A DNA stretch of 35,613 nucleotides from an uncultured Chthoniobacterales bacterium (GTDB lineage Bacteria > Actinomycetota > Acidimicrobiia > Acidimicrobiales > SHLQ01): contig CAXMRH010000073.1 in NCBI GenBank assembly GCA_964196045.1, forward strand, positions 1 to 35,613, read 5' to 3'. Below, piece by piece: positions 1,045 to 35,613 of this stretch. The notes under the pieces were generated by a model that searched no databases, had not been told where the DNA came from, and saw nothing but the letters and a program-made list of their open reading frames with translations. Positions within the stretch are counted from its first letter, which is position 1; each line of letters opens with the position of its first letter. The translations under genes and the position numbers were made by a program.

Positions 1045-1191
1045 GATCCTCAGCAGTTCGTAGCATGTCCCCGAGCGGTCGGAGACTGGTTACGTACCAG
1101 AGGACCCCCATCTCAAAGTCCATCTCCGAAAGGCCCACTAGTGGACCCCATCGCTTCAATAAAAAATACTCCGGCCGCTCCCGAAGAGGGA

Positions 1192-16000: not shown

Positions 16001-16107
16001 CTCACCTCTTTCCGAGCAGCCAAGCTGTGATGGGTCTGCTCTGCGCTACGAATACAGAAAGTTTGTTGCAGTTGGCGACTCGTTCGCAAGTACGGCGGGC
16101 GAAACCG

Positions 16108-16956
16108 TTAGCCGACGATGAGAAACTCGATGCGGCGATTCACGGCTCGGCCCTCTTTAGTGATGTTTGGCTGGAGTGGTTTCGATTCACCGAAGCCGAC
16201 TGCGATCAGTCGCGCAGCTTCGATTCCTCGTTGGGCCAACGCGACGACAACGGCCTCAGCTCGGTCCTGGCTGAGGACCTCGTTCCGGGTGGCGTCTCCA
16301 TCGGAGTCGGTGTGTCCGTGGACTTCAACAGGGGTCCCCGGAGACTGGTTCAGGAGCGACGCGACGGAATCGATGATCGCAGACCCTTCTGGCGTGAGAT
16401 CTGCGCTTCCGGTTTCGAATGTGACCTGGCCCACGTTAGCCAGCTGTTGGTCGAGCGATCCTGTCGAGACTGGCGCCACCGATGCTTGCGTGGCGCTCTC
16501 CACTGCACCACCCACGACCACGACGCGGTTGTCCACCCGTTGTGTTCCTTCTACGGACCGAGCCACAGCACCGATCGAGGCGGCTGCGAGCGGATCCCGG
16601 GCCTGCCCTTCGACGATCACCGACCCGTCATCCTCGGTGATCGTCAGATCGTCGAAGCCCGCCCGAAGTTCGGCGTCTCGTACGGCGAGTGCGAGCTCCG
16701 ACTGGACCTGGATCTCCTGGCCGTTCGCGCCATCGTCGGTCTGGTTGCCCGAGCGGACGGCCATTCCGATCACGAAGACTGCGGAAAGGAACAAAAGCAG
16801 GGGAATAATGAAGCGAGGGTCGGTCCAGGAGGCACCAGACGTACGCGGGTCAGGGGGCGGAGAAGGGCGCCTCGGTCGACGTACGGGGCCGGGGCCGCCA
16901 CGGTCGAGGTCATCGAGATCGAGAACATCGATGTCATCAGGCGGCAGGACTGACAT
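16108..16956 (-). CDS. Membrane protein with BON and OmpA-C-like domains (ArfA/Rv0899-like architecture)
   Basis: TM helix; BON ending in VDNRVVV; FETGSA, GHTDSDG, LSQDRA, GFGESKP, NRRIEF. Confidence 0.88.
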   Translation of the reverse strand: MSVLPPDDIDVLDLDDLDRGGPGPVRRPRRPSPPPDPRTSGASWTDPRFIIPLLLFLSAVFVIGMAVRSGNQTDDGANGQEIQVQSELALAVRDAELRAGFDDLTITEDDGSVIVEGQARDPLAAASIGAVARSVEGTQRVDNRVVVVGGAVESATQASVAPVSTGSLDQQLANVGQVTFETGSADLTPEGSAIIDSVASLLNQSPGTPVEVHGHTDSDGDATRNEVLSQDRAEAVVVALAQRGIEAARLIAVGFGESKPLQPNITKEGRAVNRRIEFLIVG

Positions 16957-20671: not shown

Positions 20672-20743
20672 CTGGAGTGGTTCGCGCTTGCCCGGATAGA
20701 TTCTTGGCAAGCTGTTCTTTTACCCGTCGAGGAGTCACCACAG

Positions 20744-21229
20744 ATGAAATTGTCCGACGAACCCTCCGTGGCTGTCGAAACCACGATCAAGGTCGAGCCG
20801 CAGCGTGTGTACGAGCTCGTGTCGGACCTCGACGCAATGGGAAGTTTCGGGACCGAATTCCAGGGTGGTGAATGGGTAAGCGGGCGTCCCGGGACGGTTG
20901 GCTCGACGTTCGTTGGGCGTCAGCGCCTGGGCGACCGCGAGTGGGAGACGACATCAACCGTCATGTCCGCCGAGCCCGGGCGGGAGTTCAGCTGGACGGT
21001 AGGCGATCTCGACGATTCGACCGCGACATGGACGGTGAACCTTCGGTCGGTGCCCGATGGATGCGAAGTCCGGTATTCCTTCGTTCACGGCCCGGGGCCC
21101 TCAGGACTACGTTTGCGAATCGAGGCTCAGCCGCACGATGAAGCCAAGTTCATCGACGCGCGTCTGTCCACTTTGCAGCAGAACATGATCAAGACACTCG
21201 AAGGCATCCGGCGCAGAACGGCGCGCTGA
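20744..21229 (+). CDS. SRPBCC (polyketide cyclase/START-like) family protein
   Basis: PQRVYELVSDL, GSTFVGR, WETTSTV..AEPGREFSW, C-terminal helix TLEGIRR; AGGAG RBS. Confidence 0.85.
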   Translation: MKLSDEPSVAVETTIKVEPQRVYELVSDLDAMGSFGTEFQGGEWVSGRPGTVGSTFVGRQRLGDREWETTSTVMSAEPGREFSWTVGDLDDSTATWTVNLRSVPDGCEVRYSFVHGPGPSGLRLRIEAQPHDEAKFIDARLSTLQQNMIKTLEGIRRRTAR

Positions 21230-21245: not shown

Positions 21246-22625
21246 TCAAACGGGCGCCGGTTCGTGCGCCTCGGGTGCGTCACCCGGCTCGCGCTCAGCG
21301 TCGCCTGAGTCGAGCGGCACGAGCCGATCCCGTCCGGCCTCTGCCTGACGAACTCCAGCGGCGATCGCTGTCACGATCGCGATCAACACGAAGACGCGGG
21401 GTGCCCGGGTGAACTTCTCGAGTAGGTCATCGATCCCGAGCGTGGTCTCGAAGATTCGCTCGACCGCCCAGATCCCTGCGACTACCCCGAGAACCATCGA
21501 TCCGAGCCGGAGGAACCGGGGGTAGAGAACGGTTCGTCGAAGCATGTAGAGGGCCGGGAAGAGCAACGAGATGATGAACGCCTGTCCGATCTCGACACCG
21601 ACGTTGAACCCGAGTAGCGAGATCAACCGTTGTCCCCGGCCGACTCCGAGCTCGGACAAGAGCCCCGCGAAACCGAATCCGTGGAAGATGCCGAACGCAA
21701 AGGCGATCAGGTGCTCTCGGTTCGCAAAGATCGGTTTCATGTTGTGAAGCGCAGTCGCAATGATCGACACAGCGATCACCGTTTCGACCAGCCTCGACGG
21801 CAGCTCGATGATTTCGAGACCGCCGAGTGTCAATGTGATCGAGTGCGCCAAGGTGAACATGGTCGCGATCTTCAGAACGCGCCACAGGCCGGCTCGGAAA
21901 GTGGGTACTGGCTGCCATGATTGCGTCGCCGAGTAGAGCATCACCGCTGGAAGAAGCAGAACGAGCACGAACAAGATGTGATCGGTGCCGATGAAGATGT
22001 GTTCCATGCCGAGCGAGACCGTTCCCGTGAAGGCCTTCCACACATCCGGGTCGTCGAGGTTCACCGTCGAGGTCGGGTCTGAAGAGGTGAGGAGATCGGG
22101 TTGAAAGTTTCCTTCGTTGAGAAACACCCCAGTGACCGGGTCCGTCCGGATCACGACGAAGCCCGAGTGACCTGCGCGCTCGTCGAAGATGCCCGAATAG
22201 GTGACGTCGAACTCCCGAGGTGCTTCGTCGAACGTCCGGTCGACGGTGAACTCGAACGCGGCGTACAGACGGTTCTCTGTCTTGACGATTTCGGTGCCAT
22301 CGAATGTGATCGGCCACCGAACACCGTCTGGCCCGACGATCGAGAGACTGTCGGTATTGAACGGGATCATCTGATCTTGGACGGTCTCGATGTCCTCGGG
22401 GGTTGCCAGATCTGGATCGAGGTCGAAGCCGAAAAACTCGTTCAGAAGAACGACGGGGTGTTCCACCTGACCTTGCGCAGTTCCATCGGGGAACAGGTCC
22501 AGGTACACGACCGAACTCTGACCATCATGGGCTGATGCGGCGCTCGTTAGCAGCAGACCGAACAAGGGAATGAGCAGAACACCGAGAAGCGCCATGATCT
22601 TGCGGGGAGACAGTTGGACTTTCAT
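21246..22625 (-). CDS. HupE/UreJ-family membrane protein with an N-terminal extracytoplasmic domain
   Basis: Signal peptide ASA-HD; GMEHIFIGTDHILF, FTLAHSITL, FGIFHGFGFA, GFNVGVEIGQ. Confidence 0.88.
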   Translation of the reverse strand: MKVQLSPRKIMALLGVLLIPLFGLLLTSAASAHDGQSSVVYLDLFPDGTAQGQVEHPVVLLNEFFGFDLDPDLATPEDIETVQDQMIPFNTDSLSIVGPDGVRWPITFDGTEIVKTENRLYAAFEFTVDRTFDEAPREFDVTYSGIFDERAGHSGFVVIRTDPVTGVFLNEGNFQPDLLTSSDPTSTVNLDDPDVWKAFTGTVSLGMEHIFIGTDHILFVLVLLLPAVMLYSATQSWQPVPTFRAGLWRVLKIATMFTLAHSITLTLGGLEIIELPSRLVETVIAVSIIATALHNMKPIFANREHLIAFAFGIFHGFGFAGLLSELGVGRGQRLISLLGFNVGVEIGQAFIISLLFPALYMLRRTVLYPRFLRLGSMVLGVVAGIWAVERIFETTLGIDDLLEKFTRAPRVFVLIAIVTAIAAGVRQAEAGRDRLVPLDSGDAEREPGDAPEAHEPAPV

Positions 22626-22688
22626 CACTTCACGTTCTTTCACTACCAAGTTCTCGGAGTATCTACGCACTTATCTTGATGTGCGGAT

Positions 22689-23906
22689 TCAGGCCGGAAG
22701 GCCCAATAGTCGGGCGATGATGTTCTTCTGTATCCCGGAGGCGCCGCCGTAGATCACCCCGCCACTCAGGTTTCTGAGGTCGCGCTCGACCCCGTATTCC
22801 GACACATATCCTCGTGCGCCATGAATCTCGACCGAGGCAAGGGCACCTGCGAGCGCTCCTTGACTTCCGGCGAGCTTGCTGAGTGCTGCGGCCATCATCG
22901 AGCTCTGGCCGCGTTGTTGCAGGGCAGCGGCCTTGTACATCAGCAGCCTGGCGGACTCGTGGGCCAACTTCACGTCGCTCAGCGCATGAGAAACGCCCTG
23001 GAACGATCCGATTGGCTGGCCGAACTGCTCGCGGCTTCGTCCGTACTCGACAGCGTCGAGGAGAACCCGTTCCAGGGCGCCGATGCTGCCGACGAGGAGG
23101 AACCCTCGCTCCGCCTCCATCGAAGAACTGAAGATGCTGGCGCCTGCACCTTCTGCTCCCATCCGAGCCGATTCTGGAATGTGGCAGTCGGTGAAGTTGA
23201 CGTTCGAGAATGGTGTCGTACGCAGCCCCATCTTGGGTCGATTGGCGCCCACGTCGAGCCCCGGGGTGCCTGCGGGGATGCAGAACGCGCTGATTCCCCA
23301 GCGGCCAACTTCCGGGTTTGTCGTCGCGAACACGATGAACACATCCGCGACGGGTGCCATAGTGACCCAGGCCTTCTCTCCGTTCAGGACGTAGCCGTCT
23401 GGAACTCGTGTCGCTGTGGTCGTCAGCGAGAAGGCGTCGGACCCCGATTCGGGCTCAGACATCGAGAACGAGCCGATTGCCTCTCCTGAGATCAGCTTTG
23501 GCATCCACTCCTTTGCCTGTTCGGGAGTGCCGAAACGCTCAAGCGTCATTCCAACGGTCAGAACTTGTGCGGTGGTGGCGAAGACCAAGCCGTCATCTCG
23601 GCACCCGAGGCCGAGCCCTTCCAGCTCGAGAAGGGCCGAGGTCAGGCTTCGTCCCTGGCCTCCAAACTCTGGTGATGCGAGGAGGCTGAAGAGCCCGCGT
23701 TCGCCGATCCTGTCCCAGCCTTCACGCCAAAAGGTGCAGTTCAGGTCACGATCCAACAGTGTGTCATCGGCAAGGTTCGCTCGGGCCCAGTCGGCAATGG
23801 CCAGTTTGCGAGGATGGGCTTCGTTGAGGAGGGCCTCGAGCATCTCGATATCCGATACGGACGCGACGATGGAAAGCTCCTCCGACCCTGCATCTACCGC
23901 TTTCAT
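22689..23906 (-). CDS. Acyl-CoA dehydrogenase of the L-prolyl-PCP dehydrogenase (PltE/RedW/CloN3) clade
   Basis: FWREGW..GLF..PEFGGQG, LEGLGLGCRDDGLVF, MSEPESGSD, MEAERG, R.QFGQPIGSFQ, IYGGASGIQKNIIARLLGL. Confidence 0.85.
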   Translation of the reverse strand: MKAVDAGSEELSIVASVSDIEMLEALLNEAHPRKLAIADWARANLADDTLLDRDLNCTFWREGWDRIGERGLFSLLASPEFGGQGRSLTSALLELEGLGLGCRDDGLVFATTAQVLTVGMTLERFGTPEQAKEWMPKLISGEAIGSFSMSEPESGSDAFSLTTTATRVPDGYVLNGEKAWVTMAPVADVFIVFATTNPEVGRWGISAFCIPAGTPGLDVGANRPKMGLRTTPFSNVNFTDCHIPESARMGAEGAGASIFSSSMEAERGFLLVGSIGALERVLLDAVEYGRSREQFGQPIGSFQGVSHALSDVKLAHESARLLMYKAAALQQRGQSSMMAAALSKLAGSQGALAGALASVEIHGARGYVSEYGVERDLRNLSGGVIYGGASGIQKNIIARLLGLPA

Positions 23907-24067
23907 TGGCTTCGTACCTCTCCCAAGCGGTGACTCGCCGATTCGCCGCATCTACGACACGAGTACCACAACGTCACACATATGCAATTCGACATGAGAA
24001 CTCCGAACTCCAAAAGGACTATTTGCTCGGGCTACGTTCCGAGGCACCCTGTTGGATGCGTTGCGTT

Positions 24068-25723
24068 ATGCCGGAGCAGGGACGAGCAATAGAAGTGGGA
24101 AGTTCGTTGGGATCTAGCGAGTTCGGGGAGCGAGTCGGATCGTCGCGCATACGCACGCTCAGCGGGCTTCTCGCCGATCAGGCCAGCATTCGGCCGGATG
24201 CTGGCGCCGTCGTCGACGTTGCTCGCACGTGGACGTGGTCCGAGATCGCTGTGGCGTCAGGCCAAATGATGGCCGCGCTGATCGACTGTGGTGTCCAACC
24301 CGGTGGACGGGTCGGCGTGCACCTGAACAAGTCAGCCGAGGGTTTCGCCGCGATGCACGCTGTTGTTTCGGTCGGTGCAATCGCTGTGCCACTCGACCCT
24401 GGTTCTCCGGCAGCGCGGGTGGCCCGGATCTGCGATCGCATGCAGATCGCCGTCGTCGTGTCACATGCGCCTCGCAAGCGAACGCTCCTCGCCATGCACG
24501 AAATCCGTCCGCTCGCCGCGGTGATCGGAGTCGACCTCGCGGCCGAGCTTCGATCGATCGACGTGGACGAACTCGCGAACTTCGAGCCGGCGGCACCCCG
24601 TCTGGTCGATGTCGATGCACCGTCGTACATCATCACGACGTCAGGCTCCACTGGCGAGCCGAAGGGAATGGTGCACACGCACCGAAGTGCCTTGGCGTAT
24701 GCCGACATGACCCTTCGTACGTATGGGCTTCGATCTGACGACCGAGTCTCTGATATTGCTCCGCACCATTTCGACATCTCGACACACTCGTTGTGGTCGG
24801 TACCACTTGCCGGCGCTACCAACGTCATCATCTCCGAGCCCTATCAGCGGCTCCCTGCCAGTCACTCGCAACGTTTGCAGGACGAACGCGTGACGTATTG
24901 GTACTCCGTGCCGTTCTTGCTGCACCAACTCGTCCTCAGAGGTGACCTCGAGAACCGTGACCTCTCCGCCCTTCGCTGGGTACATTTCGGCGGCGAGGTC
25001 ATCTCGCCGCTGGTCATCGCGGACTTCATGGCGGCCGCACCGAACGCTCGATTCGCGAACATCTTCGGCCCGGCCGAGACGAACCAATGCTCGGTGGCTA
25101 TCTTCGACGGCCCTCCCGATCCGAAACAGATGTTGTCGGTCGGGCGGCCCCTCGACCACACGGCCATCCGAATCATCGATCCAGATGCCGACACACCAGA
25201 TCTCAGGAATGTCGTCCAGAGCGGCGAGATGTGGGCCTCGACGCCACAGCTCATGGAGGGGTACTGGCAACAACCCGAGCTGAATGCTCGAGTCATCGTC
25301 GAGTTGGATGGAAAGTATTGGTACCGGAGCGGCGACCTTGTTTCAGTCGCGGACGATGGGAACATGACATTCCACGGTCGCCTCGATCACCAGGTCAAAG
25401 TGCGCGGCTACCGCATCGAACTCGAAGGTGTCGAAATGGAACTCGAGCAGCTCCCTGACGTTGACCACGTTGTCGTAGCCGTCTCCCGTCTGGCGACCGG
25501 TGAGGATGAGCTGGTCGCTGGGCTTCTTGGTACGACGTCCGACTTCGACGAGTCGAGTTTTCTCCACGCAGCTGCATCCGTACTACCCACCTATGCCGTA
25601 CCTACACGCACAGTGACAATCGATGCGGCGACCTTCACAGGCAGCGGGAAGCTCGATCGTCGACTGTTGCGAGAGCACATTCTCGATGCCCTGAGAATCG
25701 AAACCCTGAAAGTTGAAAGCTGA
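24068..25723 (+). CDS. Stand-alone amino-acid adenylation enzyme (PltF/RedM/CloN4-like carrier-protein ligase)
   Basis: YIITTSGSTGEPKG, APHHFDIS, TYWYSVP, NIFGPAETNQC, YRSGD, GRLDHQVKVRGYRIEL, SGKLDR; start uncertain. Confidence 0.88.
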   Translation: MPEQGRAIEVGSSLGSSEFGERVGSSRIRTLSGLLADQASIRPDAGAVVDVARTWTWSEIAVASGQMMAALIDCGVQPGGRVGVHLNKSAEGFAAMHAVVSVGAIAVPLDPGSPAARVARICDRMQIAVVVSHAPRKRTLLAMHEIRPLAAVIGVDLAAELRSIDVDELANFEPAAPRLVDVDAPSYIITTSGSTGEPKGMVHTHRSALAYADMTLRTYGLRSDDRVSDIAPHHFDISTHSLWSVPLAGATNVIISEPYQRLPASHSQRLQDERVTYWYSVPFLLHQLVLRGDLENRDLSALRWVHFGGEVISPLVIADFMAAAPNARFANIFGPAETNQCSVAIFDGPPDPKQMLSVGRPLDHTAIRIIDPDADTPDLRNVVQSGEMWASTPQLMEGYWQQPELNARVIVELDGKYWYRSGDLVSVADDGNMTFHGRLDHQVKVRGYRIELEGVEMELEQLPDVDHVVVAVSRLATGEDELVAGLLGTTSDFDESSFLHAAASVLPTYAVPTRTVTIDAATFTGSGKLDRRLLREHILDALRIETLKVES

Positions 25724-25971
25724 TGACTAATGCACTCTCTCAGGCGCTGACACGTTTCATTCAGGAAGAGATCGTGTTCGACGATGTCGTCGTCGATGGC
25801 GACATCGACCTGTTGTTGACCGGGTTGGTCGACAGTCTTGGCGTCATTCGGATCACACATTGGATGGAAGAGACGACTGGCGTGGTCGTGGACCCGGGTG
25901 ACGTCACTCTCGAGAACTTCCAGACGGTTGACAAAATGGCCGCCTACCTCGATTCGCGAGCGAAGGTCTGA
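25723..25971 (+). CDS. Stand-alone carrier protein (PltL/RedO-like ACP/PCP)
   Basis: LLLTGLVDSLG phosphopantetheinylation motif; ENFQTV; TGATG coupling to the upstream gene. Confidence 0.9.
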   Translation: MTNALSQALTRFIQEEIVFDDVVVDGDIDLLLTGLVDSLGVIRITHWMEETTGVVVDPGDVTLENFQTVDKMAAYLDSRAKV

Positions 25972-25973
25972 GC

Positions 25974-28900
25974 GTGTCCAACACGGTGCATTTGCAGCCA
26001 CGGAGGCCGCTGACGCCCGCCCAAGAGCTGATCTGGACGTCGCAACGTCTCCAGCCAGATTCGCCGCATCAGAATATGGCACTTCTGACGACGTTCGGTG
26101 CGCCAATCGATGCCGATCGGTTTCTCGAGGCGGTCGATGCGGTGGTGCGAACGAGCGATGCGCTGCGCACAACGGTTCGCGAGATCGACGGTGTCCCGCA
26201 CCCAATCTTGTCAGCGGTTCCACCGTCGACGACGAAGGTGCTGCGGCTCGACCGTGAAGACCTCGATGAGTGGATGCACACCCGAATCAGCCGACCGATC
26301 GACCTCGACAAGGCCGCATACGAGTCCGCGCTGATCGACCATGGCAACGATGAGTGGTCGTGGTTTGTCAACGTCCACCACATCGTCATCGATGCCGCGA
26401 GCTCCGCGAACTTCTTCAACGCTGTTGCAAATCAGTATCACGGCCAAGACTACGAACTGCCTAAGTACGCGGACGTGTGGGCGGAGCTGTCCGAGATGCA
26501 GAATGCGGCACGACTAGACAACGCACGCGATCACTGGGCGCTGACCGAGGGCGATGCTGCTCCGACGAGCATGTACCGGCCGGATTCTGGTCCCACGAGC
26601 CTCGCTGACCGTGTCAACATCGACATGTCCGCGGGGCGCCAGCACGCGCTGGATGCTCTTCTCGAGGACCGGTTTCGGCTCCTTAGCCCAGGTCTCTCGT
26701 TAACGGTGGCGCTCGCAACCGCGCTGTCCGCCTACCTGGCGAAGCTCGGAAACGACGACGTCACGATCGGGATTCCGATCCATCACCGTTCGACAAAGAA
26801 CGCGAAGCGGGTCATCGGTCCACTCGTAGAGTTGTTCCCACTCCGGATCGATGTGCTCGACGACGACACCTACGTGTCTCTGCATGAACGAATCGGCAAG
26901 TCGTTGTTCGAGTTGCTTCGGTTCGCCATTCCGGGAACCAGTCCTCGGCAGTCGTTCGACGTTGTTCTCAACGTCCACGGCGCAACACTGGGGTCGTTCG
27001 GGCCAATCCCCGCCTCGACTCGATGGATCCACCCCGGCCACATCGATCCGCATCACCGTCTACGAGTCCAGGCCCTCGACTACGACGGCAGCGGAACCCT
27101 TGAACTTGGTCTCGACGTCAACCACCGGATCGCGGACGGTGACCATCGTCGGCGCGCCGGGGTGCACTTCTCGACCGTGATCGACGCGATGACGAGCGAT
27201 CCAATGCAGACGGTTCATTCTGTCGGACTGCTCACGCCTGACGAGTCGCTCCTGCTGGAGTCCTTCACGAGCAGCAGCCATGGTGTTCCAATCGACGGAG
27301 TCGCGCCCGAGATCGTTTCACAACGGTTGTTAGCTCATGCCGACCACATCACGATTCAGTCGAGCGACGAGGTGCTCACCGCAGCAGAGCTCGACGCCCG
27401 AATCGACGAGGTCAGCCGAGCACTGAAGGCGAGTGGCATCGGTCGCGGCGACCGCGTGGGAATCGAGATGCCGATCGGCATCGACGCCGTCGTTGCGATT
27501 CACGGAGTCCTGCGGTCGGGCGCGGCGTTCGTGCCGATCGACCCCGCGTATCCGGCTGCTCGCCGTGAACACATTCGCGATGATTCTGGATGTGCGTTCA
27601 CCGTCACCTCCCTTGCGGAGTTGCGCGTCGGGGTCACGGCCGATCACCAGATTTATCCCAGCGACCCGATTTCTCTAGAGGACCCAATCTCTTTGGATGA
27701 CACCGCGTATGTGATCTACACCTCGGGCTCGACCGGCTTACCAAAGGGTGTGCCGATCACCCACCGCGGGTTGTCCGAGTATCTCGGGTTTGCTTACTCG
27801 ACCTACGTCGGTGCGACTCCTCCAGTAATGCCGCTCTTCACCTCGTTGTCCTTCGACCTGACGATCACCACGCTGTTCCTTCCGTTCCTTTCCGGTGGGC
27901 GTATGACCGTGCACCCGGGTGGAGGACTCTCCGCGCTTCGAGAGATTGTTGAGCAGCGCGAGGCGACCCTTCTCAAGGCGACACCTTCACACCTCGAACT
28001 CTTGGTGCGAATGCTCGATGTGGATCACCCACTCCGCGGCCTCATCGTCGGTGGCGAAGCGTTCATGGTCGATCTTGCCGAGCGGCTGCAGAACGTTCTC
28101 GGGCCGGAACTCTCGATCTTCAACGAGTACGGACCAACCGAAGCGGTCGTTGGGTGTATGGAACACCACTTCGACCCCTCGAGCGATCATGGCCCCGAGG
28201 TTCCGATTGGCCGAGCCGCGCCAGGCGTCGCTCTCCACATTCTGGATCGATTCGGGCTGCCCGTCCCGTTGGGTGTCGCTGGAGAACTCTTCATCTCGAG
28301 GCCCGGTATGACGTCTGGATATCTGGGACGCCCTGATCTCAGCGCAGAGAAGCTCGTCGTCGTTCCACCGTCGGGAAGTGATGCCCTGTTGTATCGCACC
28401 GGCGACCTCGTGCGAATGCTCGATGCCGATCGCATGGTCTACCTCGGGCGAATCGACGAACAGATCAAGGTCGGTGGAATCCGCCTCGAGCCAGGTGAGA
28501 TCGAACACGTCGCTCAGCAGATGACTGGAGTCGAGCGCGCCGTTGCCGGCCTGTGGACTCCAGACTTGGCACAAAGAATCGAGAACTGTGTGCGTTGTGG
28601 GCTCGGCTCCGACGTCCCGGGGACCACCATCGATGGGGACGGGGTCTGTTCGAGCTGCCATCAATACGACCTCGTCGAACCCCAGGCTGCCGCATGGTTT
28701 CGAACCGAGGACAATCTTCGCGAGGCGATCGCCCACGCGCGAGCGAGGTCAACAGGGGACTACGACGTCATCCACCTGATCAGTGGCGGCAAGGACTCGA
28801 CCTACGCGTTGTACAAGCTGGTCGAGCTTGGAGCGAAGGTATTCGCGATCACTCTCGACAACGGATACATCGCTGAAGTGGCGAAGGCGAACGTTCGTCG

Positions 28901-31900
28901 TGCGACCGCCGCTCTCGGCGTCGACCACGAGTTCGTCACGGTCGACGGCATGGACGAGATTTTCAAGGACAGCCTCGCCCGTTTCTCGAACGTGTGTAAC
29001 GGTTGCTACAAGGCGATCTATACCATCGCGCTTGCGAAGGCCGAGGAGCTCGGAATCGGTGCGATCGTGACCGGCTTGTCTCGAGGTCAGTTCTTCGAAA
29101 CTCGCCTGGTTCCAGGCATGTTCGACTCGGACCGGTTCGACCCCGAGTCCATCGACGACATGGTGCGGGAAGCTCGCCACGTGTATCACACGACGCCTGA
29201 TGCGGTGTCGGAACACATGGACGTCGAGTTCTTGGCCGACGACACGATCTTCGACCGCATCACATTCATCGACTTCTACCGTTACGTCGATGTGCCACTC
29301 AGCGAGATGTATGAGGCGCTCGAAGGCAGCGGCACCTGGCAGCGCCCACCTGACTCCGGTCGATCGACGAATTGTCTGATCAACGCGGCCGGAATTTTTG
29401 TCCACAAGATCGAGCAGGGCCATCACAACTACGCCGCCCCGTACAGCTGGGATGTCCGCCTCGGACACAAGACCCGCGACGAAGCAATGTTCGAGCTCGA
29501 CGATCCAATGGACGATGAGGAGATGGCCGCGATCACGACGATGCTCGCCGAGGTTGGGTACGAACCGCGTAGTCCCGAGATGCTGACATTGTGGGTGGAA
29601 GCCGATGATGGACTCGACGTGGAAGCACTTCAGAGCCTTCTTGCGGAGCGGTTGCCCGCCCATGCCGTTCCGCATGCCATCGAGGTCGTCGACTCGGTTC
29701 CGCTCACGGCGAACGGGAAAGTCGACACCGCCGCGCTGCCAGCGCCCGCTCGTCGACGAAACGAGGCCGTAACCGGCGAAGGACGAGTCGCAGAGACCCC
29801 AACTGAGTTGCTCATCGCGTCCACCTGGAACACGGTGCTCGGTCTTTCGGAGGTACGCGCAAACGATGACTTCTTCGCCCTCGGGGGGACATCACTACAT
29901 GCCCTCGAAATGATCGTTCGTGTGAGCGATCACTTCGACATCGTCGTTCCTGAATCGATCGCGTTCACGAAACGGACGGTCGAGGAACTTGCAGAGCACG
30001 TGGACGAATTGCTCAGCGACACCTCACCGTCGACCATCGACGCACGTTCGTCCTACGACATACCCAAGCTCGACGACGAACTCCTGCCACTCTCCGCGGG
30101 CGAGGAATCGATGCTCTATGAATGGCGCCGGGACCCGACCGATCACCGTTATAACGTGGCGCGCCTGTACCGCCTCCCGGACAACGCCGATGTCGAACGG
30201 TTCAACGGTGCCGTTCGTTCTGTAGTCGCTCATCACGAGACGCTTCACACGTCCTATGGCCCGAGGCGGCAGACGCTCGATGTGGACGCTGCGCTCTGGA
30301 TTGGCGACGTCTCCTCGGAGGAAGCGTCGCTCGTTCACCTTGCCGAGAAGCTGAACGATACGCAGTTCGATCTGGTCAACGGCCGCTTGATCACTCTCCA
30401 CCATCTCCGGAGTGGCCACCCCGATGATGTCGGTCAGCGAGGAGCACTGATTCGGACCCACCACATCGTCAGCGACGCTGGGTCGCTCGATGTCTTATGG
30501 AACCAGATCGACCTCGCTTATCGAGGTGAGGATCTTCCTGAACTCGACGTCTCCTACGCGGAGCACGGCACATGGCAACGTCGACGATCGGCCGATCCGG
30601 CAGCGGTCTGGAGCCCTAGGACTGCTCCAGCCGAACTTCTGGTGCGTGGTGTGGGTGCTGAGCCTGACGGCTATGTGCATACGGCTTCATCGATCTCGAT
30701 GACCCAGCTCCGCAAGGCCCCGGGCACCACGCCGTTTGCAAACGCCCTGACAGCTCTCGCTGCGGCGCTAGCGCCGTATCACGACGGGCAGAACATGGAA
30801 CTCACCATCACCTCGTCCGTCCGGGATCATCCTGCGATCGCGGATGTCGTCGGGTACTTCTTGAACCCGTTGCCGCTGCTCATCGACGTGGATCCTTCGA
30901 AGACGCTGCGTGCACTCTCGATGTCGGTGAGCGACACCTTGGCCGAAGGCCTCGAACATCGTGCTGTTCCTTTTGGGTCGGTCGTGCGCTCGGCGCGCGA
31001 GCGTGAAATCGCACCGCCAACAGGTCGAGTCATGTTGGCCGTCGAGGATTTGGCGCCCGCAACGCTCGACGGCGCCTCTGTGCCGCACTCCATCTTGTCC
31101 TCGGGGACCGCGGTGAACGATCTCACGTTTTTCGTGCAGATTCGCGACGAGCTGATCGAGTTGGGGTGTGAGTATCGGGGCTCCACTATTGGGCGAGCCG
31201 CGGCAGAACGGCTGCTCGACGCGTTCAGTAGAGCGTTGCACACGTTGGTCGGGCGTTCCGGGGACATCGTCGAGTCCGTCGCTCTGCGCCCTGCACCACT
31301 CACAGGCGGCGAGCTCACTCACCCGGCACAACTCGTTCCAGACCTGCTCGCGTCCGCGATCGCCGAACATGGAGCGCGATTTGCCGCTCGAGCTGGCCGC
31401 GAGAAGGTGACCTACGAAGAACTCGATGCAAATGCGCGATCGTTGGCTGCACGACTGCGCGCGGTTGGTGTCGGACCTGGCGACAGGGTCGCAGTTGTGC
31501 TCCCCAGGTCCGTCGACCTGCCGATCGCGATCTGGGCCACCTGGATTCTGGGCGCCAGCTACGTGCCGATCGACGTCGCTCAGCCAGCGGCTCGCGTCAC
31601 CGAGTTGATCTCTGCTGCCGGAGTCCGTGCCGCAGTGTCCTCCAGAGGTGGCCACGCTGGCCTCACCGAGGTCACGACCGTCCAGCTCGACGAGAACGAC
31701 GCTGCGGTCCTGCCGATTAGTCGAGTCCACGCTGTGACGCCTAAGGACGAGGCGTACGTGATCTTCACTTCCGGATCAACGGGTCGCCCCAAGGGTGTTC
31801 CGGTCTCCCACTGGAATCTCGCGTCATCGTTGGCTGCTCGGCTGCAGTGGTACGCAGATCCTGTCAAGCGCTACCTGCTCGTCTCGAGTGCCGGGTTCGA

Positions 31901-33896
31901 TTCATCGGTCGCAGGCCTGTTCTGGACTCTGGCAGACGGAGGTGAGCTGATCTTTCCCACCGAGGACGAGGTGCACGATGTTGACGCTCTACTCTCGCTG
32001 ATCGAGCGAGCCAAGCCCTCGCACACCCTGATGGTTCCATCGCTCTACGGGACACTCTTGGCTCGCAGTGCTGGACCCGTGCCGAGCCTGACGACGGTGA
32101 TCGTCGCCGGTGAGGCCTGTCCCTCGGCTGTGGTCGTCGATCACATGGCCCAGTCCGCTGATGTAGAACTCGTCAACGAGTACGGCCCAACGGAAGCAAC
32201 GGTGTGGTCGACAGCACATCGATGTACGCCAGCCGATGTCATGGCTGTACCGATTGGTGGACCTATCCCGGGTATGTCGCTGGAAGTGGTCGACAGCGCG
32301 GGGTTGCCTCTGCCCATCGACGCGGCCGGCGAGCTCTGGGTCTCTGGGCCTGGCGTCGCCGACGGCTACCTCGGCGATGCTGAGTCCCCGAGTTTTCTGC
32401 ACGATCGCGGGTTCGGACGGACCTACAAGACTGGTGACCTGGTCGTGCGCCGAGACGACGACACCGTGGATTTCCTGGGCCGCGTGGACGCACAACTGTC
32501 GGTCGGAGGCGTTCGAATCGAGCCGAGTGAGATCGAACAAGCGCTGACCATCGTTACCGGGGTCTCCGGCGCGCTCGTCGGCCTCCGAGGACGAGAGTTG
32601 TTCGCCTGGATCGAGGTGTCGTCAAGCCTGGCTGAAGCGGCTGTACGTCACGAAGTTGGCGAGCTCCTCCCACCCACCCATGTGCCGAACCGTGTTGTGA
32701 TCGTTGAATCGTTGCCTCGGAATTCGAACGGAAAGGTTGACCGCAATGCGATCGACTCGCTTCCGTCTCGCTCGTCCGGCGCAGAAATTGTCGTGACCAG
32801 CGATGCCGCCGACCCGGTCGTCAGCTCCGTGACCGCGCTCTTCCGGGCAGCGTTCGATGGTCGCGAGATCAGCCCGGACTCGGACTTCTTCGAGGTGGGC
32901 GGAGACTCACTCCGGGCTGTAGCGCTCGTGACGTTGCTCGAGAACGAGTTCGGACGTCGGGTTGCCATCGGTGAATTGATCGACGCGCCGACTCCGAGAC
33001 AACTTGCTGAGCGGCTACGTGTCGTCGTCGACGCAGGAACGACTGAGCCCTCAATTTCGTCAGCCGAACGCGTCGCGCTAGCCGAAGGCGGGTTGGTGGA
33101 ATGGCTTCGATCGAGCGGTTCACAGGCGCCGTTGATCGTGTTGCCACCTGGGGGAGGAAATCTGCTCAGGTACGCGCCACTGGTGCGCGCGCTCGACACC
33201 GACATCCCCGTCATTGGTATCCGGTTGCCAGGCGCCGATGCAAGAAGTGAGATCGTCACGTCGATCGCGGCTCAGGCCGAACGGATGCTCGAGGCTCTCG
33301 ACGAGGCCGTCCCGTCCGGACCGTACCGCCTGCTCGGTTGGTCGACGGGTGGACTCCTCGCCTGGGAGATCGGACGTCTGCTCCAGGATCGAGGCGACGA
33401 AGTCGAGCTTGTCGCGCTGGTCGACACGGTCATGGCGGGGCTGCGAGTCGACGACACCGGATCGATCGCGAACAAGTACGCGGACATGCTCCAGAACGAG
33501 GGTGCACGAGCCGCCGTTGGTGAGGGCCTGTCACGGGTTCGTGAGCGCGTGACCTTCGCCCTTGCACGACGCCGATATCGGGCCGCCAGAGAGGCGGGCG
33601 AGACCCCATCCATGGAGGACGCTGAGCGTCAACTCGGTCCGGTGATTCGGCGAGCCGCCCTGGGATACACGCCGAAACGACTCGACATCCCGCTCGTCTA
33701 TTTCTCGGCGAGCGAATCCGACAACGCCGTCACAGTTGACCCCTGGACTGATGTCCAAGACGATCTTGGCCTCGAGGTGGTGTCGATCGAGGGCGTACAT
33801 TTCCTGCCCGAGGATCGTTGCATCATCGGCGAGAGGCGAGCAACCGAATTGGTAGAACACGTGCTGCGACGATTGCCAGCTTCACCCCCCAGCTAG
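25974..33896 (+). CDS. Dimodular NRPS C-A(Asn code, interrupted by PP-loop AMDH-like domain)-T-C-A(His-like code)-T-TE, 2640 aa
   Basis: C1 HHIVIDA (26376), A1 FDLTITT (27855), insert ~28560-29575 with SGGKDS (28782), T1 GGTSL (Ser 29892), C2 HHIVSDA (30459), A2 FDSSVAG (31899), T2 GGDSL (Ser 32907), TE GWSTG (33336). Confidence 0.95.
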   Translation: MSNTVHLQPRRPLTPAQELIWTSQRLQPDSPHQNMALLTTFGAPIDADRFLEAVDAVVRTSDALRTTVREIDGVPHPILSAVPPSTTKVLRLDREDLDEWMHTRISRPIDLDKAAYESALIDHGNDEWSWFVNVHHIVIDAASSANFFNAVANQYHGQDYELPKYADVWAELSEMQNAARLDNARDHWALTEGDAAPTSMYRPDSGPTSLADRVNIDMSAGRQHALDALLEDRFRLLSPGLSLTVALATALSAYLAKLGNDDVTIGIPIHHRSTKNAKRVIGPLVELFPLRIDVLDDDTYVSLHERIGKSLFELLRFAIPGTSPRQSFDVVLNVHGATLGSFGPIPASTRWIHPGHIDPHHRLRVQALDYDGSGTLELGLDVNHRIADGDHRRRAGVHFSTVIDAMTSDPMQTVHSVGLLTPDESLLLESFTSSSHGVPIDGVAPEIVSQRLLAHADHITIQSSDEVLTAAELDARIDEVSRALKASGIGRGDRVGIEMPIGIDAVVAIHGVLRSGAAFVPIDPAYPAARREHIRDDSGCAFTVTSLAELRVGVTADHQIYPSDPISLEDPISLDDTAYVIYTSGSTGLPKGVPITHRGLSEYLGFAYSTYVGATPPVMPLFTSLSFDLTITTLFLPFLSGGRMTVHPGGGLSALREIVEQREATLLKATPSHLELLVRMLDVDHPLRGLIVGGEAFMVDLAERLQNVLGPELSIFNEYGPTEAVVGCMEHHFDPSSDHGPEVPIGRAAPGVALHILDRFGLPVPLGVAGELFISRPGMTSGYLGRPDLSAEKLVVVPPSGSDALLYRTGDLVRMLDADRMVYLGRIDEQIKVGGIRLEPGEIEHVAQQMTGVERAVAGLWTPDLAQRIENCVRCGLGSDVPGTTIDGDGVCSSCHQYDLVEPQAAAWFRTEDNLREAIAHARARSTGDYDVIHLISGGKDSTYALYKLVELGAKVFAITLDNGYIAEVAKANVRRATAALGVDHEFVTVDGMDEIFKDSLARFSNVCNGCYKAIYTIALAKAEELGIGAIVTGLSRGQFFETRLVPGMFDSDRFDPESIDDMVREARHVYHTTPDAVSEHMDVEFLADDTIFDRITFIDFYRYVDVPLSEMYEALEGSGTWQRPPDSGRSTNCLINAAGIFVHKIEQGHHNYAAPYSWDVRLGHKTRDEAMFELDDPMDDEEMAAITTMLAEVGYEPRSPEMLTLWVEADDGLDVEALQSLLAERLPAHAVPHAIEVVDSVPLTANGKVDTAALPAPARRRNEAVTGEGRVAETPTELLIASTWNTVLGLSEVRANDDFFALGGTSLHALEMIVRVSDHFDIVVPESIAFTKRTVEELAEHVDELLSDTSPSTIDARSSYDIPKLDDELLPLSAGEESMLYEWRRDPTDHRYNVARLYRLPDNADVERFNGAVRSVVAHHETLHTSYGPRRQTLDVDAALWIGDVSSEEASLVHLAEKLNDTQFDLVNGRLITLHHLRSGHPDDVGQRGALIRTHHIVSDAGSLDVLWNQIDLAYRGEDLPELDVSYAEHGTWQRRRSADPAAVWSPRTAPAELLVRGVGAEPDGYVHTASSISMTQLRKAPGTTPFANALTALAAALAPYHDGQNMELTITSSVRDHPAIADVVGYFLNPLPLLIDVDPSKTLRALSMSVSDTLAEGLEHRAVPFGSVVRSAREREIAPPTGRVMLAVEDLAPATLDGASVPHSILSSGTAVNDLTFFVQIRDELIELGCEYRGSTIGRAAAERLLDAFSRALHTLVGRSGDIVESVALRPAPLTGGELTHPAQLVPDLLASAIAEHGARFAARAGREKVTYEELDANARSLAARLRAVGVGPGDRVAVVLPRSVDLPIAIWATWILGASYVPIDVAQPAARVTELISAAGVRAAVSSRGGHAGLTEVTTVQLDENDAAVLPISRVHAVTPKDEAYVIFTSGSTGRPKGVPVSHWNLASSLAARLQWYADPVKRYLLVSSAGFDSSVAGLFWTLADGGELIFPTEDEVHDVDALLSLIERAKPSHTLMVPSLYGTLLARSAGPVPSLTTVIVAGEACPSAVVVDHMAQSADVELVNEYGPTEATVWSTAHRCTPADVMAVPIGGPIPGMSLEVVDSAGLPLPIDAAGELWVSGPGVADGYLGDAESPSFLHDRGFGRTYKTGDLVVRRDDDTVDFLGRVDAQLSVGGVRIEPSEIEQALTIVTGVSGALVGLRGRELFAWIEVSSSLAEAAVRHEVGELLPPTHVPNRVVIVESLPRNSNGKVDRNAIDSLPSRSSGAEIVVTSDAADPVVSSVTALFRAAFDGREISPDSDFFEVGGDSLRAVALVTLLENEFGRRVAIGELIDAPTPRQLAERLRVVVDAGTTEPSISSAERVALAEGGLVEWLRSSGSQAPLIVLPPGGGNLLRYAPLVRALDTDIPVIGIRLPGADARSEIVTSIAAQAERMLEALDEAVPSGPYRLLGWSTGGLLAWEIGRLLQDRGDEVELVALVDTVMAGLRVDDTGSIANKYADMLQNEGARAAVGEGLSRVRERVTFALARRRYRAAREAGETPSMEDAERQLGPVIRRAALGYTPKRLDIPLVYFSASESDNAVTVDPWTDVQDDLGLEVVSIEGVHFLPEDRCIIGERRATELVEHVLRRLPASPPS

Positions 33897-34855
33897 AGCG
33901 GCGCGCCGTACCGACTGATCCTGTCCACAAGTCCGCCGTAACGCGCTTCGAGCTCCCGTTCGACGTGCTCCGGCTCGGCCACAACCGCGAACGTCGCCAG
34001 CATCTCGTCATCGATCACGTCGGCGAGTTCGTTCCACCGACCGGATTTGGTGAGTGTGTTCAGCTCGGTCTGCGCATCGCCCCAGCCATGGAAGTCGAGC
34101 ACGTCTCGATAGGCGGGCGTCGATCCATAGAAGCCGATCTGCTGCTTGATTCCGCGTGCAGCGCGTGACATCTCGTCTTCGTCGTCGCCGGTCACAACGA
34201 AAGCAGGTAGCGCGACCTTGACGGAGTCGTGCGTTCTGCCTGCCTCATCCATGAATCCCCGCATGCGGGGAAGTGCAACGCTCGAGAAATGTTGTGGTGT
34301 GGTGAACGGGTGCACCATCCAGCCGTCACAAATCTCGGCCGTCAGCCGCACCATCAATGGTCCCACGGCGGCTAGATACACGTCTGGCTTGCGGTGTTGC
34401 GCCGGCCCAGGGTTGAAGAAGTCGGTCATGAGGATGTGGGTGTAGTGGTCGCCTTTGAAACGCAGTGGCTCACCGGTGTCCCAGCAGTCCCAGATGGCGT
34501 GCATAGCGCCGATGAACTCTCGCATTCGGGCCGCAGGTGCCGACCACGGCATCGAGAACCGTTTGGTGATGTGGGGTTTGATTTGGCTTCCCAGCCCCAG
34601 GATCATTCGGCCCTCCGAGAACTCGTTGAGGTCTCGCGCCGTGTGCGCCAGCGTCATGGGGTTGCGGGCAAAAGCGACCGCGATCGACGTTCCGAGCTCG
34701 AGGCGATCCGTGGTCTGGGCTGCGACGACCAGTGGGAGGAACGGATCGTGAGCGGTCTCGGCGGTGAAGGCACCGAGGTATCCCTCCGATTCGAGTTGGG
34801 CGGCTTGGGCGCCGGCGGTTCGGAGGTCGGTGGTGAGGTAGCCATCGGACTGCAT
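33893..34855 (-). CDS. F420-dependent LLM-class oxidoreductase (TIGR03617-like)
   Basis: AETAHDPFLPL, LGTSIAVAFARNPM, LGLGSQIKPHITKRFSMPW, AAVGPLM, FYGSTPAY; start placed at ATG 34855. Confidence 0.88.
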   Translation of the reverse strand: MQSDGYLTTDLRTAGAQAAQLESEGYLGAFTAETAHDPFLPLVVAAQTTDRLELGTSIAVAFARNPMTLAHTARDLNEFSEGRMILGLGSQIKPHITKRFSMPWSAPAARMREFIGAMHAIWDCWDTGEPLRFKGDHYTHILMTDFFNPGPAQHRKPDVYLAAVGPLMVRLTAEICDGWMVHPFTTPQHFSSVALPRMRGFMDEAGRTHDSVKVALPAFVVTGDDEDEMSRAARGIKQQIGFYGSTPAYRDVLDFHGWGDAQTELNTLTKSGRWNELADVIDDEMLATFAVVAEPEHVERELEARYGGLVDRISRYGAPL

Positions 34856-34861
34856 CCTCAG

Positions 34862-34871
34862 ATCGTAGAGT
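34862..34871. promoter_or_regulatory. Overlapping divergent -10 elements (bidirectional leaderless promoter)
   Basis: Plus-strand TAGAGT at 34866-34871, 6 nt before ATG 34878; minus-strand TACGAT at 34867-34862, 6 nt before ATG 34855. Confidence 0.6.
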
Positions 34872-34877
34872 TGGGAG

Positions 34878-35613
34878 ATGCGCGTAGGGGTGTTCATCGA
34901 TGGACAGAACATCACGATCGGGGCCAGGTACGCGTTCGGCTCCGGCAACATGCACCCGCTGCTACTTGGCAGGGCGATCGCCGGCGATTGTGACCTCGTG
35001 GAAATTCGCTACGCGACCGGGATACCCGACCACGACATCGACCCGGATCATCACGTGATCGAGCGTCGCCGTCACGACCTGATGCAGGCAACCGACGTCG
35101 TCGTCCTCGAGAAGACCCTTCGGTATCGATGGGAGTGGGACATCCGCGATCGTGATCTCGGCGATCCGAGAGATCACAAGGGCGAGACGACGAAGGCCAG
35201 GGTGAAATCTCGAAATCGAGGGCAGGAGAAGGGCGTCGACGTGTGGCTCGCCCTTGATGCGATCACGATGTGCGCTCGTTCGGACCTCGATCGAGTGGTG
35301 ATAGCGACGGCCGATTCCGATCTGGACATGGTGCCAACCCACCTGCGCATGATGCCCGGGCAAGAAGCAACCGAGGTCATGCAGGCACGGATCCTGCCCG
35401 ACGGTCGGTCCCTGCGTATGAACGATGCGTACGACGGCACCGTGGCGATCGATCGCGCGATGTTCGACTTGACACGGGACGACTTCGATTACACCAAGCC
35501 GCTTGACGACGGCGACATCGCCGCGTTCGTACAACGCATCGGCGCCGACACGGATGGCATCCGTGACGAGGGCGGTACCGTCGAGGGAGCAAGTCCGCGC
35601 GACCAAACAACAG
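34878..35613 (+). CDS. NYN/LabA (PIN-like) domain protein, 3'-truncated by the window edge; absent from the ORF track
   Basis: Manual translation MRVGVFIDGQN...IRYATG...QEKGVDVWLALD...VVIATADSDL gives the conserved NYN acidic motifs; frame open to the window end. Confidence 0.85.
   Translation, partial: MRVGVFIDGQNITIGARYAFGSGNMHPLLLGRAIAGDCDLVEIRYATGIPDHDIDPDHHVIERRRHDLMQATDVVVLEKTLRYRWEWDIRDRDLGDPRDHKGETTKARVKSRNRGQEKGVDVWLALDAITMCARSDLDRVVIATADSDLDMVPTHLRMMPGQEATEVMQARILPDGRSLRMNDAYDGTVAIDRAMFDLTRDDFDYTKPLDDGDIAAFVQRIGADTDGIRDEGGTVEGASPRDQTT

Follow-up and report, generated by a model that had tools for sequence, protein, structure and literature searches.

Why does a nonribosomal peptide synthetase (NRPS) operon in an uncultured actinobacterium lie back to back with a permease of the HupE/UreJ-2 family, and what might the two have to do with each other? 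The question is raised by positions 21246-33896 of contig CAXMRH010000073.1, of which the whole 35,613-nucleotide stretch was analysed (the window). The contig, with a GC content of ~61%, belongs to an uncultured Acidimicrobiales metagenome-assembled genome (MAG) of 3.2 Mb that is 84% complete. Five genes are found here: on the minus strand those of the permease (HupE for short) and of a flavin adenine dinucleotide (FAD)-dependent dehydrogenase of the acyl-CoA dehydrogenase (ACAD) family, and divergent from them on the plus strand those of a free-standing adenylation (A) enzyme, a free-standing peptidyl carrier protein (PCP) and the NRPS. Our reading, which we put a little above even chances, is that this unit makes a peptide of oxidised proline, modified asparagine and histidine that acts together with the permease in the acquisition or handling of copper or nickel. 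We assign this role because the gene set travels with a permease tipped by an N-terminal histidine across several families of the order, and because the predicted product carries a histidine at position 3.

The genes and the region that separates the two units are as follows, with C, A, T and TE standing for condensation, adenylation, carrier and thioesterase domains.

21246-22670, minus strand: HupE/UreJ-2 permease (P0004; PF13795, HupE_UreJ_2, E 7e-44; probable start at 22625, giving 459 aa)
22689-23951, minus strand: ACAD, predicted FAD-dependent acyl-carrier-protein dehydrogenase of the prolyl-PCP dehydrogenase clade (P0003; three ACAD Pfam domains; probable start at 23906)
23907-24067, no strand: divergent promoter region separating the ACAD/HupE unit from the A/PCP/NRPS operon (conserved blocks in the in-genus loci)
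23906-25723, plus strand: free-standing adenylation enzyme, PltF-like (P0002; AMP-binding E 2.4e-68; probable start at 24068, giving 551 aa; code DIHYHGIQCK)
25723-25971, plus strand: free-standing carrier protein of 82 aa (P0005; PP-binding E 3.7e-07; Ser38 in GLVDSLG, codon 25834-25836)
25974-33896, plus strand: NRPS of 2640 aa with the architecture C-A(interrupted)-T-C-A-T-TE (Pfam: two Condensation, two AMP-binding, two PP-binding and one Thioesterase match)

All five open reading frames (ORFs) lie intact where the initial annotation had placed them (ORF listing, Pfam and NCBIfam), and every catalytic motif in them is intact by motif reading. The architecture that it described, a dehydrogenase-HupE/UreJ pair divergent from an A/carrier protein/C-A-T-C-A-T-TE operon, agrees with the ORFs, the domains and the junctions; its assumption of a Streptomyces-like actinobacterial host has to be given up, as the MAG is an Acidimicrobiales genome and no streptomycete. 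It offered no interpretation of the HupE gene. The stop codon of the A gene and the ATG of the carrier-protein gene share one base (TGATG) and the GTG start of the NRPS lies 2 nt past the carrier-protein stop; judged by these junctions, the three genes are translationally coupled. The true starts are likely to lie downstream of those of the longest ORFs, at 22625 for HupE (the 459-aa form, P0126), at 23906 for ACAD (from a conserved CAT plus ribosome-binding-site block) and at 24068 for the free A enzyme (the 551-aa form, P0006), and the later ACAD and A starts leave a divergent promoter region of ~161 bp.

The linkage of the permease to the NRPS was followed across the order. Of 24 sampled genomes of the same genus, 18 have a strong orthologue of the free A enzyme (E <= 1e-150), two more have a divergent or fragmented copy and the remaining four have none. 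The order HupE-ACAD-A-PCP-NRPS is syntenic with the window in ten related loci, and the HupE gene stands beside the cluster in all 11 in-genus loci that have upstream sequence. Of 12 loci outside the genus, 10 have the HupE gene, and the gene orders there are of at least four kinds: in L022 it stands between the carrier-protein and NRPS genes, in L101 and L102 it is divergent from the NRPS gene, and in L103 and L111 it lies downstream of ACAD. The five genes, which the initial annotation took to belong together, do recur together in relatives, both in the ten syntenic loci and, rearranged, in several families of the order. This arrangement is far beyond chance.

The same association is seen in a 301-genome sample of the order. 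NRPS genes with an inserted domain of the AMDH type (described below; called at E <= 1.9e-94) are found in 16 of these genomes, including that of the window, and one more genome has a weak match to a free-standing PP-loop protein. A strong HupE homologue is present in all 16, versus 5 of the 285 others, in a sample whose members are relatives and not independent; one of these five (G216) has a version of the cluster that lacks the AMDH domain. The co-occurrence spans at least six families. In an all-versus-all ORF comparison of 14 loci only the NRPS/A, HupE, ACAD and carrier-protein genes (with their shadow ORFs) are widely shared. The NRPS itself is equally constant: all 18 orthologues keep the codes DLTK[IV]GEVGK and DS[AV]L[IV]AEVWK, both HHxxxD motifs, SGGKDS and the CxxC pairs.

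These counts also bear on the possibility that the neighbourhood is fortuitous or decaying and that the cluster makes nothing. One locus (L106) looks degraded, with a split free A gene, an NRPS ORF of 1067 aa and no HupE nearby, and four of the 24 same-genus genomes have no strong free A orthologue at all. Against this stand the intact ORFs of the window with all their catalytic motifs, and strong orthologues with conserved codes in 18 of the 24 genomes and in several families, and we consider such a null outcome very improbable.

The HupE protein is the only PF13795 protein encoded in the genome. From the N-terminus it consists of a signal peptide, a histidine that would become residue 1 after cleavage (His1, codon 22527-22529), a β-sandwich of ~160 aa and the PF13795 transmembrane domain (21531-22019). 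An A-x-A motif followed by an invariant histidine ends the leader in 16 of 16 orthologues and in 25 of 25 wider homologues, the cleavage site having been judged by eye, and in the same two sets the motifs H-x5-DH, AHS, HN and FHG of the PF13795 region are invariant. An AlphaFold2 model (predicted local distance difference test, pLDDT, 81.9) places strands at residues 38-189 and helices at residues 195-431. The ectodomain matches no Pfam or NCBIfam family, and a sequence search of the PDB with the protein returned nothing meaningful.

This layout is that of the Ang-HupE/UreJ-2 proteins: by sequence and model the protein has His1 directly after a signal peptide, a non-cytoplasmic β-sandwich and PF13795 helices. 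In the accessible text of PMC12537917, the anglerases (Ang-1, Ang-2) are described as fused to HupE/UreJ-2 domains, with a His1 that is 100% conserved and with Ang-2 restricted to Actinomycetota; dissociation constants of 62-74 nM for Cu2+ and 220 nM for Ni2+ were measured, and metal capture for the permease was proposed as their role. The window protein shares with them the signal peptide, invariant His1, β-sandwich ectodomain and PF13795 helical domain and is likened to them by layout, not by Ang sequence; they differ further in that the main text of PMC12537917, as accessible, makes no mention of NRPS genes (0 occurrences of 'NRPS' or 'non-ribosomal'). We therefore treat HupE as a predicted permease that captures copper or nickel.

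What the partner of this permease would make can be read, domain by domain, from the NRPS.

25974-27293, plus strand: C1, starter/aryl-acceptor-like condensation domain (Pfam Condensation, residues 12-312; HHIVIDA, residues 135-141)
27294-28586, plus strand: N-terminal part of the A domain of module 1, up to A8 (ends at residue 844; Asn/3-cyanoalanine code DLTKIGEVGK)
28587-29650, plus strand: AMDH-type PP-loop insert between A8 and A10 (CxxC 872-875, CxxC 892-895, SGGKDS 937-942, CNGC 1008-1011)
29651-29760, plus strand: C-terminal remainder of the A domain of module 1 (AMP-binding_C 1207-1249; A10 lysine in NGKVD, residues 1247-1251)
29800-30010, plus strand: T1 carrier domain (PP-binding in two stretches; LGGTSLHAL, Ser1307)
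30060-31330, plus strand: C2 condensation domain (PF00668 match 30090-31250; HHIVSDAGS, residues 1496-1504)
31359-32770, plus strand: A domain of module 2 (AMP-binding 1796-2133; His code DSALIAEVWK)
32820-33020, plus strand: T2 carrier domain (PP-binding 2295-2348; VGGDSLRAV)
33129-33896, plus strand: thioesterase release domain (PF00975 E 1.3e-21, or E 4.7e-23 for the segment alone; GWSTGG, residues 2455-2460)

With its C, A, T and TE domains collinear and with HHxxxD, A3-A10, GGxS and GxSxG intact, this is a modular linear (type A) NRPS, and the genome, at 84% completeness, has no Condensation match besides the two C domains of this NRPS. The ten Stachelhaus positions of each A domain were read off the core motifs. 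According to the accessible part of PMC12283262, the code of module 1 is compatible with 3-cyanoalanine and that of module 2 is among the codes for histidine. The best NCBIfam models for C1 are the MxcG C domain (61.9 bits) and EntF, and its best PDB matches are 7c1k/7c1h and CDA peptide synthetase I; all of these C domains we take to be starter or aryl-accepting. The closest models for C1 are then C domains to which free carrier proteins hand aryl or acyl groups, and a transfer of the starter from the carrier protein to C1 is supported at the sequence level. The checkable parts of what the initial annotation had proposed for the assembly line all hold in silico: a starter-accepting C1 (intact HHxxxD, MxcG/EntF as best models and the CDA synthetase I match), a modified asparagine in module 1 (code plus PP-loop insertion), histidine in module 2 (code) and release by a TE that closes the line with GWSTGG. 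One ACPS-type phosphopantetheinyl transferase is found in the genome; an MbtH protein was not found in this 84%-complete assembly.

The first A domain is interrupted by ~360 aa between A8 (ending at residue 844) and A10 (residue 1247). In position, Asn code, SGGKD motif and size of ~38 kDa the insert agrees with the AMDH domains of CysH and AlbIV. As far as the accessible text of PMC7966384 goes, AMDH is a 38-kDa SGGKD-bearing domain inserted in the Asn-activating CysH and 69% identical to its AlbIV counterpart; it dehydrates T-bound Asn to β-cyanoalanine and, after CysJ has acted, isomerizes β-hydroxy-Asn to isoasparagine (isoAsn). The same source notes many AMDH homologues the products of which are not known. 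The window cluster resembles the cystobactamid (CysH) and albicidin (AlbIV) systems in its Asn-specific A domain with a ~38-kDa SGGKD PP-loop interruption and a cyanoalanine-compatible DLTKIGEVGK code (PMC7966384, PMC12283262; accessible text of both). They differ in that the A(AMDH)-T proteins CysH, from a myxobacterium, and AlbIV stand alone and work in trans on para-aminobenzoate oligomer antibiotics, whereas the window has the domain in cis, within a C-A-T module of an Acidimicrobiales dipeptide line that lacks CysJ and CysQ partners; the likeness is one of position, code, motif and size.

The only Pfam similarity of the insert is to QueC/ThiI-like PP-loop families (residues 931-1039, within the first A domain), and its sequence matches the 'nitrile synthetase' entries 9leh/9lei with E 2.2e-4. 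The best NCBIfam model is TIGR03573 (WbuX, N-acetyl sugar amidotransferase; E 4.5e-25, profile positions 22-321 of 344), where 88.8 bits against a cut-off of 203.2 mark a homologue and no family member. A model of the insert built on 19 orthologues (AlphaFold2, pLDDT 82.1) has its best fold match in 8wex, an N-acetyl sugar amidotransferase from Legionella (E 5.6e-09), followed by [4Fe-4S] LarE, QueC and asparagine synthetase, with the nitrile synthetase ArtA (9lei) at rank 50. Like the insert, the WbuX/PtmG/WbpG family and 8wex combine a PP-loop with CxxC pairs; they are free-standing and act on sugar acetamido groups.

Two outcomes of the insert have to be weighed. Since the window clade has no hydroxylase gene, and given the CysH data, residue 2 is most likely β-cyanoalanine, that is to say the predicted outcome is a nitrile. 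The PP-loop domain could instead give isoasparagine or an amidine, so that residue 2 would be isoAsn or an amidino amino acid, and several observations lean that way and weigh against the nitrile. N-acetyl sugar amidotransferases make amidines, and they are the nearest relatives of the insert by family (TIGR03573), by fold (8wex) and by protein-atlas features, which point to the same families. The AMDH of CysH also acts as an aminomutase leading to isoAsn; in the accessible text of PMC7966384, however, this isomerization was efficient only after β-hydroxylation by CysJ and nitrile formation prevailed without CysJ. The exact code DLTKIGEVGK, moreover, has been reported for a 3-cyanoalanine position (PMC12283262, accessible part). 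With no hydroxylase in the window clade, an isoAsn or amidine residue strikes us as unlikely, and β-cyanoalanine is retained below.

In five distant loci, though not in the window clade, a gene for an Fe(II)/2-oxoglutarate dioxygenase of the PhyH family lies between ACAD and the free A gene. Three of these genes are

L100, 5136-6143, minus strand: PhyH gene
L114, 11459-12487, minus strand: PhyH gene
L111, 7657-8715, plus strand: PhyH gene

and the others are in L103 and L115. By analogy with CysJ, such an enzyme could steer AMDH away from the nitrile and towards isoAsn; alternatively, it could hydroxylate proline or histidine.

The first residue would come from the two remaining enzymes and the carrier protein. 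ACAD has its best PDB match in 4irn, 'Prolyl-ACP dehydrogenase' (285.7 bits), followed by 5zw0 and 6af6, 'L-prolyl-[peptidyl-carrier protein] dehydrogenase' (255.8 and 253.1 bits), with generic ACADs at ~216 bits. The glutamate of its SMEAERG motif aligns with the sole residue that differs between 5zw0 and 6af6, and in this alignment the catalytic glutamate is kept. Its best NCBIfam models are RedW (NF045652, 341.8 bits) and PigA (NF053553, 329.5 bits), and its gene lies beside those of a free A enzyme and a free carrier protein, as in prolyl-PCP dehydrogenase cassettes. The same trio of free A enzyme, free carrier protein and ACAD-family flavoenzyme is found in PltF/L/E, RedM/O/W, PigI/G/A, CloN4/5/3 and the anatoxin proteins AnaC/D/B; the protein names that stand behind the PDB codes of these proline-cassette relatives are our own assumption. 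The present cassette departs from them in scoring below the equivalog cut-offs, in sharing 4/10 pocket positions with 6o6e, and in passing its acyl group to an NRPS C domain and not to a polyketide synthase (PKS) or coupling enzyme.

For the pocket segment of the free A enzyme (151 aa) the best PDB matches are the proline--prolyl-carrier-protein ligases 6o6e (E 1.8e-16) and 7thn (E 2.5e-12); the full-length list is headed by LgrA entries only through the summing of two A domains. Codes read off the printed alignments are DLLYLALVCK for 6o6e, DLFYIAWVCK for 7thn and DIHYHGIQCK for the window enzyme, which is identical to 6o6e at four of ten positions within a shared frame D..Y.[GA]..CK. Orthologues in other families have DQFYLGVQCK, DMLYLAIQCK, DVLYLGVWCK and similar codes, and more distant family members have DILYLGVACK, near that of 6o6e. 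By these codes, the proline-ligase frame is conserved and drift affects three or four positions. Homologues at least 40% identical to the free A enzyme number more than 120, and the four among them with an organism name are Acidimicrobiia/Acidimicrobiales MAGs. Proline is the likeliest substrate by sequence, an assignment of which we are fairly, if not fully, confident.

The pyrrolyl-type starter of the initial annotation is supported in silico, with reservations: the best relatives are indeed prolyl-PCP dehydrogenases and proline ligases, while the scores fall short of the equivalog cut-offs and the free A code is non-canonical. A starter other than pyrrole-2-carbonyl would arise if oxidation stopped after two electrons, giving pyrroline-carbonyl as in anatoxin-a, or if the free A enzyme loaded a polar proline analogue or another amino acid. 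The ACAD scores count for this and against a pyrrole, being 341.8 against a cut-off of 650 for RedW and 329.5 against 500 for PigA; we therefore file ACAD as an enzyme that probably works like a prolyl-carrier-protein dehydrogenase and not as a RedW or PigA equivalog. The match to 4irn, higher than that to 5zw0, points the same way: we take 4irn to be AnaB, a two-electron enzyme, and if that holds, pyrroline and pyrrole are equally plausible starters. So does the pocket. Where 6o6e has Leu, Leu and Val, the enzymes of the window genus have His, His and Gln (positions 239, 299 and 330), while distant clades are mostly hydrophobic at 239 and 299 and have Ala, Met, Gln, Trp or Glu at 330, and given this variation between clades, something other than plain proline may serve as the starter. 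On the other side, the best NCBIfam models, RedW and PigA, are pyrrole-forming, the frame D-x-x-Y-x-[GA]-x-x-C-K matches both PDB proline ligases, and a drifting pocket amid a strictly conserved pathway fits a small substrate with few contacts. A non-pyrrole starter is possible in our view, although we doubt it.

Taken together, a five-step route can be proposed. The free A enzyme would load proline or a close analogue onto the carrier protein, where the flavin dehydrogenase would oxidize the prolyl group to pyrrole-2-carbonyl (four electrons) or pyrroline-carbonyl (two electrons). C1 would then pass the acyl group to Asn on T1, the PP-loop domain would activate the side-chain amide of Asn with ATP, most likely to give β-cyanoalanine, and C2 would add His before the TE frees an acyl-dipeptide of ~344 Da.

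Peptides of the amino-terminal copper- and nickel-binding (ATCUN) type, X-X-His, bind Cu(II) and Ni(II). The predicted product shares with them a histidine at position 3 and, by inference, a nitrogen donor where residue 1 has its amine; it differs in that its N-terminus would be a pyrrole or pyrroline nitrogen and not a free amine. The constant coupling to the permease, which is our chief argument, the invariant histidine code and this nitrogen donor together suggest that the peptide is an ATCUN-like Cu(II)/Ni(II) ligand. A fuller version of the proposal, which we offer tentatively and which is possible rather than probable, is that the oxidised-Pro/cyanoalanine/His peptides constitute a previously undescribed class of NRPS metallophores, in which the pyrrole (or pyrroline) nitrogen, two amide nitrogens and the imidazole nitrogen form a square-planar Cu(II)/Ni(II) site, and that they partner an anglerase-HupE/UreJ-2 permease. 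The genome has genes for a nickel superoxide dismutase (G000:C32:2584-2958) and for a NiFe-hydrogenase-like large subunit (G000:C77:20011-21150), which indicate that the organism has a nickel demand. A NicO match is weak, urease and CbiM were not found in the 84%-complete genome, and this nickel context is suggestive only.

Besides the doubts about starter and residue 2 set out above, a number of points weigh against a role in copper or nickel handling. No product has been detected, and in an uncultured organism both product and function are predictions. The best match of HupE in a fold search is ZrgA, a zinc-binding protein, and it is weak (Foldseek E 0.012), and HupE-type proteins have been described as ion permeases and not as transporters of chelates. 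Strong HupE homologues without an NRPS neighbour exist (L110, L112 and L113, and the second copies L116 and L117), and, besides the degraded locus L106, an orphan second NRPS copy that is 49% identical to that of the window (L098, G039:C22) has no HupE, ACAD or free A gene within 5 kb upstream. The cluster contains no exporter, no regulator and no recognizable metal-regulator site, as judged from the promoter blocks and the ORF comparison of 14 loci.

Several of these points would fit a product of another kind. The same assembly line could make an antibiotic, a protease-type inhibitor or a signal, with the nitrile as an electrophilic warhead and with HupE supplying the enzymes of the pathway with a metal or serving in export or self-protection, and not as a partner of a metallophore. 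The characterized AMDH products in the accessible text of PMC7966384, the cystobactamids and albicidin, are both antibiotics, and the dark brown colour of purified CysH led to the suggestion of a metal cofactor in AMDH. Three CxxC pairs are conserved in the present domain, distant variants carry the PhyH Fe(II) dioxygenase, and the divergent promoter shows no metal-regulator site. Albicidin, for its part, is made by a pathway from Xanthomonas. A mere supply of metal would, however, leave unexplained the persistence of the permease with the cluster over at least four rearrangements and its presence in 16 of 16 AMDH-NRPS genomes; HupE-type permeases are not known as exporters, and a position-3 histidine that is invariant in 18 of 18 orthologues is as expected of a metal ligand. 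Conservation in 18 of 24 genomes of the genus and in several families likewise points to a physiological role and not to an occasional antibiotic. An antibiotic, inhibitor or signal is therefore an unlikely, though not a negligible, alternative to a peptide that handles copper or nickel with the permease.

That a proline cassette of A enzyme, PCP and dehydrogenase can feed a Cu(II) metallophore is shown by chalkophomycin (chm) from Streptomyces sp. CB00271, which is NRPS-made and has a pyrrole ligand derived from a free A/PCP/prolyl-PCP dehydrogenase cassette. Its pathway is different: NRPS and PKS are combined in a hybrid, N-hydroxylation, graminine and MFS/ABC transporters are involved, and there is no AMDH domain, His module or HupE-type permease. 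A pyrrole-imidazole alkaloid (oroidin-type) pathway was also considered and was dropped, since three building blocks are used here and there is no halogenase. Literature searches found no description of the present cluster, in a comparison that excludes MIBiG. By sequence, all its parts are of known kinds, and what appears new is their combination, the AMDH module in cis, the lineage of the host and the linkage with the permease.

The Acidimicrobiia are abundant and mostly uncultured, and their specialized metabolism is almost unexplored. Three things are joined here for the first time, a proline-oxidation starter cassette, an AMDH module in cis and a His module, in a cluster with a genetic tie to the anglerase-HupE/UreJ-2 permeases, which were described in 2025. 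If the peptide is a copper or nickel ligand, it would be a compact, synthesizable ATCUN-like natural product, a test bed for metal delivery to His-brace permeases and a genetic marker of trace-metal acquisition in environmental Acidimicrobiia; as a metallophore it would be the first small-molecule partner of the anglerase-HupE machine and would belong to the first metallophore system of the Acidimicrobiia. If it is not such a ligand, it would still represent a new family of nitrile- or isoAsn-bearing peptides.

The clusters of the relatives vary in a number of ways. The NRPS carries a C-terminal methyltransferase after the TE in L102 (2528-4327, minus strand) and L105 (15645-17444, plus strand), and that of L101 (3287-5086, minus strand) has a further C domain, so that it ends in T-C, and another NRPS gene beside it; these tails indicate that the family has diversified around a conserved Asn-His core. 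L111 has an NRPS without AMDH, and the NRPS genes are split in L107/L114 and in L108/L115. The genome with the orphan copy L098 has a complete cluster on another contig (L105). L012 bears a Verrucomicrobiales label, yet its cluster genes are 66-78% identical to those of the window and syntenic with them, so that an error of binning or naming probably explains the label. Of the HupE homologues without NRPS genes, those of L110 (G222) and L113 (G262) stand beside an α/β hydrolase and proteins without a family, with a family-5 solute-binding protein (SBP_bac_5) also near the former; these neighbours give no pointer to the metal handled.

In the divergent promoter, two blocks are conserved across the in-genus loci, GTACCACA...TGCAA and CTACG-N3-CG(T/A)(A/G)G...GGATGCG. 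In L011 the GTACCACA...TGCAA block forms a perfect TGCAAATTTGCA palindrome, and CTACG-N3-CGTAG sits just 5' of the conserved GGATGCG. An operator for a metal regulator could not be established here: the conserved blocks matched no regulator box known to us.

Two flanking genes were considered as cluster members and set aside. An F420-dependent LLM oxidoreductase (33893-34951, TIGR03617), a candidate tailoring enzyme, adjoins the cluster in only four of the seven in-genus loci whose downstream sequence extends for at least 1.7 kb and in no out-of-genus locus. An SRPBCC/Polyketide_cyc2 gene (20744-21229) is syntenic within the genus only and absent from the out-of-genus loci. In the window this SRPBCC gene is separated by only 72 bp (20672-20743) from a 3-methyladenine glycosylase gene; in relatives a gene for a 764-aa molybdopterin oxidoreductase lies between the two (L011, 4312-6606, minus strand), which is missing from the window.

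Further away, two BON/BON-OmpA genes followed by those of a Clp_N-domain protein and an ArsC-family protein (14768-16956) are syntenic within the genus only. A 661-aa protein (4743-6728, minus strand) with four RTX calcium-binding repeats and a β-propeller-like match is probably secreted. An N6/N4 DNA methylase (1141-2766, plus strand) and an AAA ATPase (7918-9348, plus strand) lie upstream and are unrelated to the cluster.

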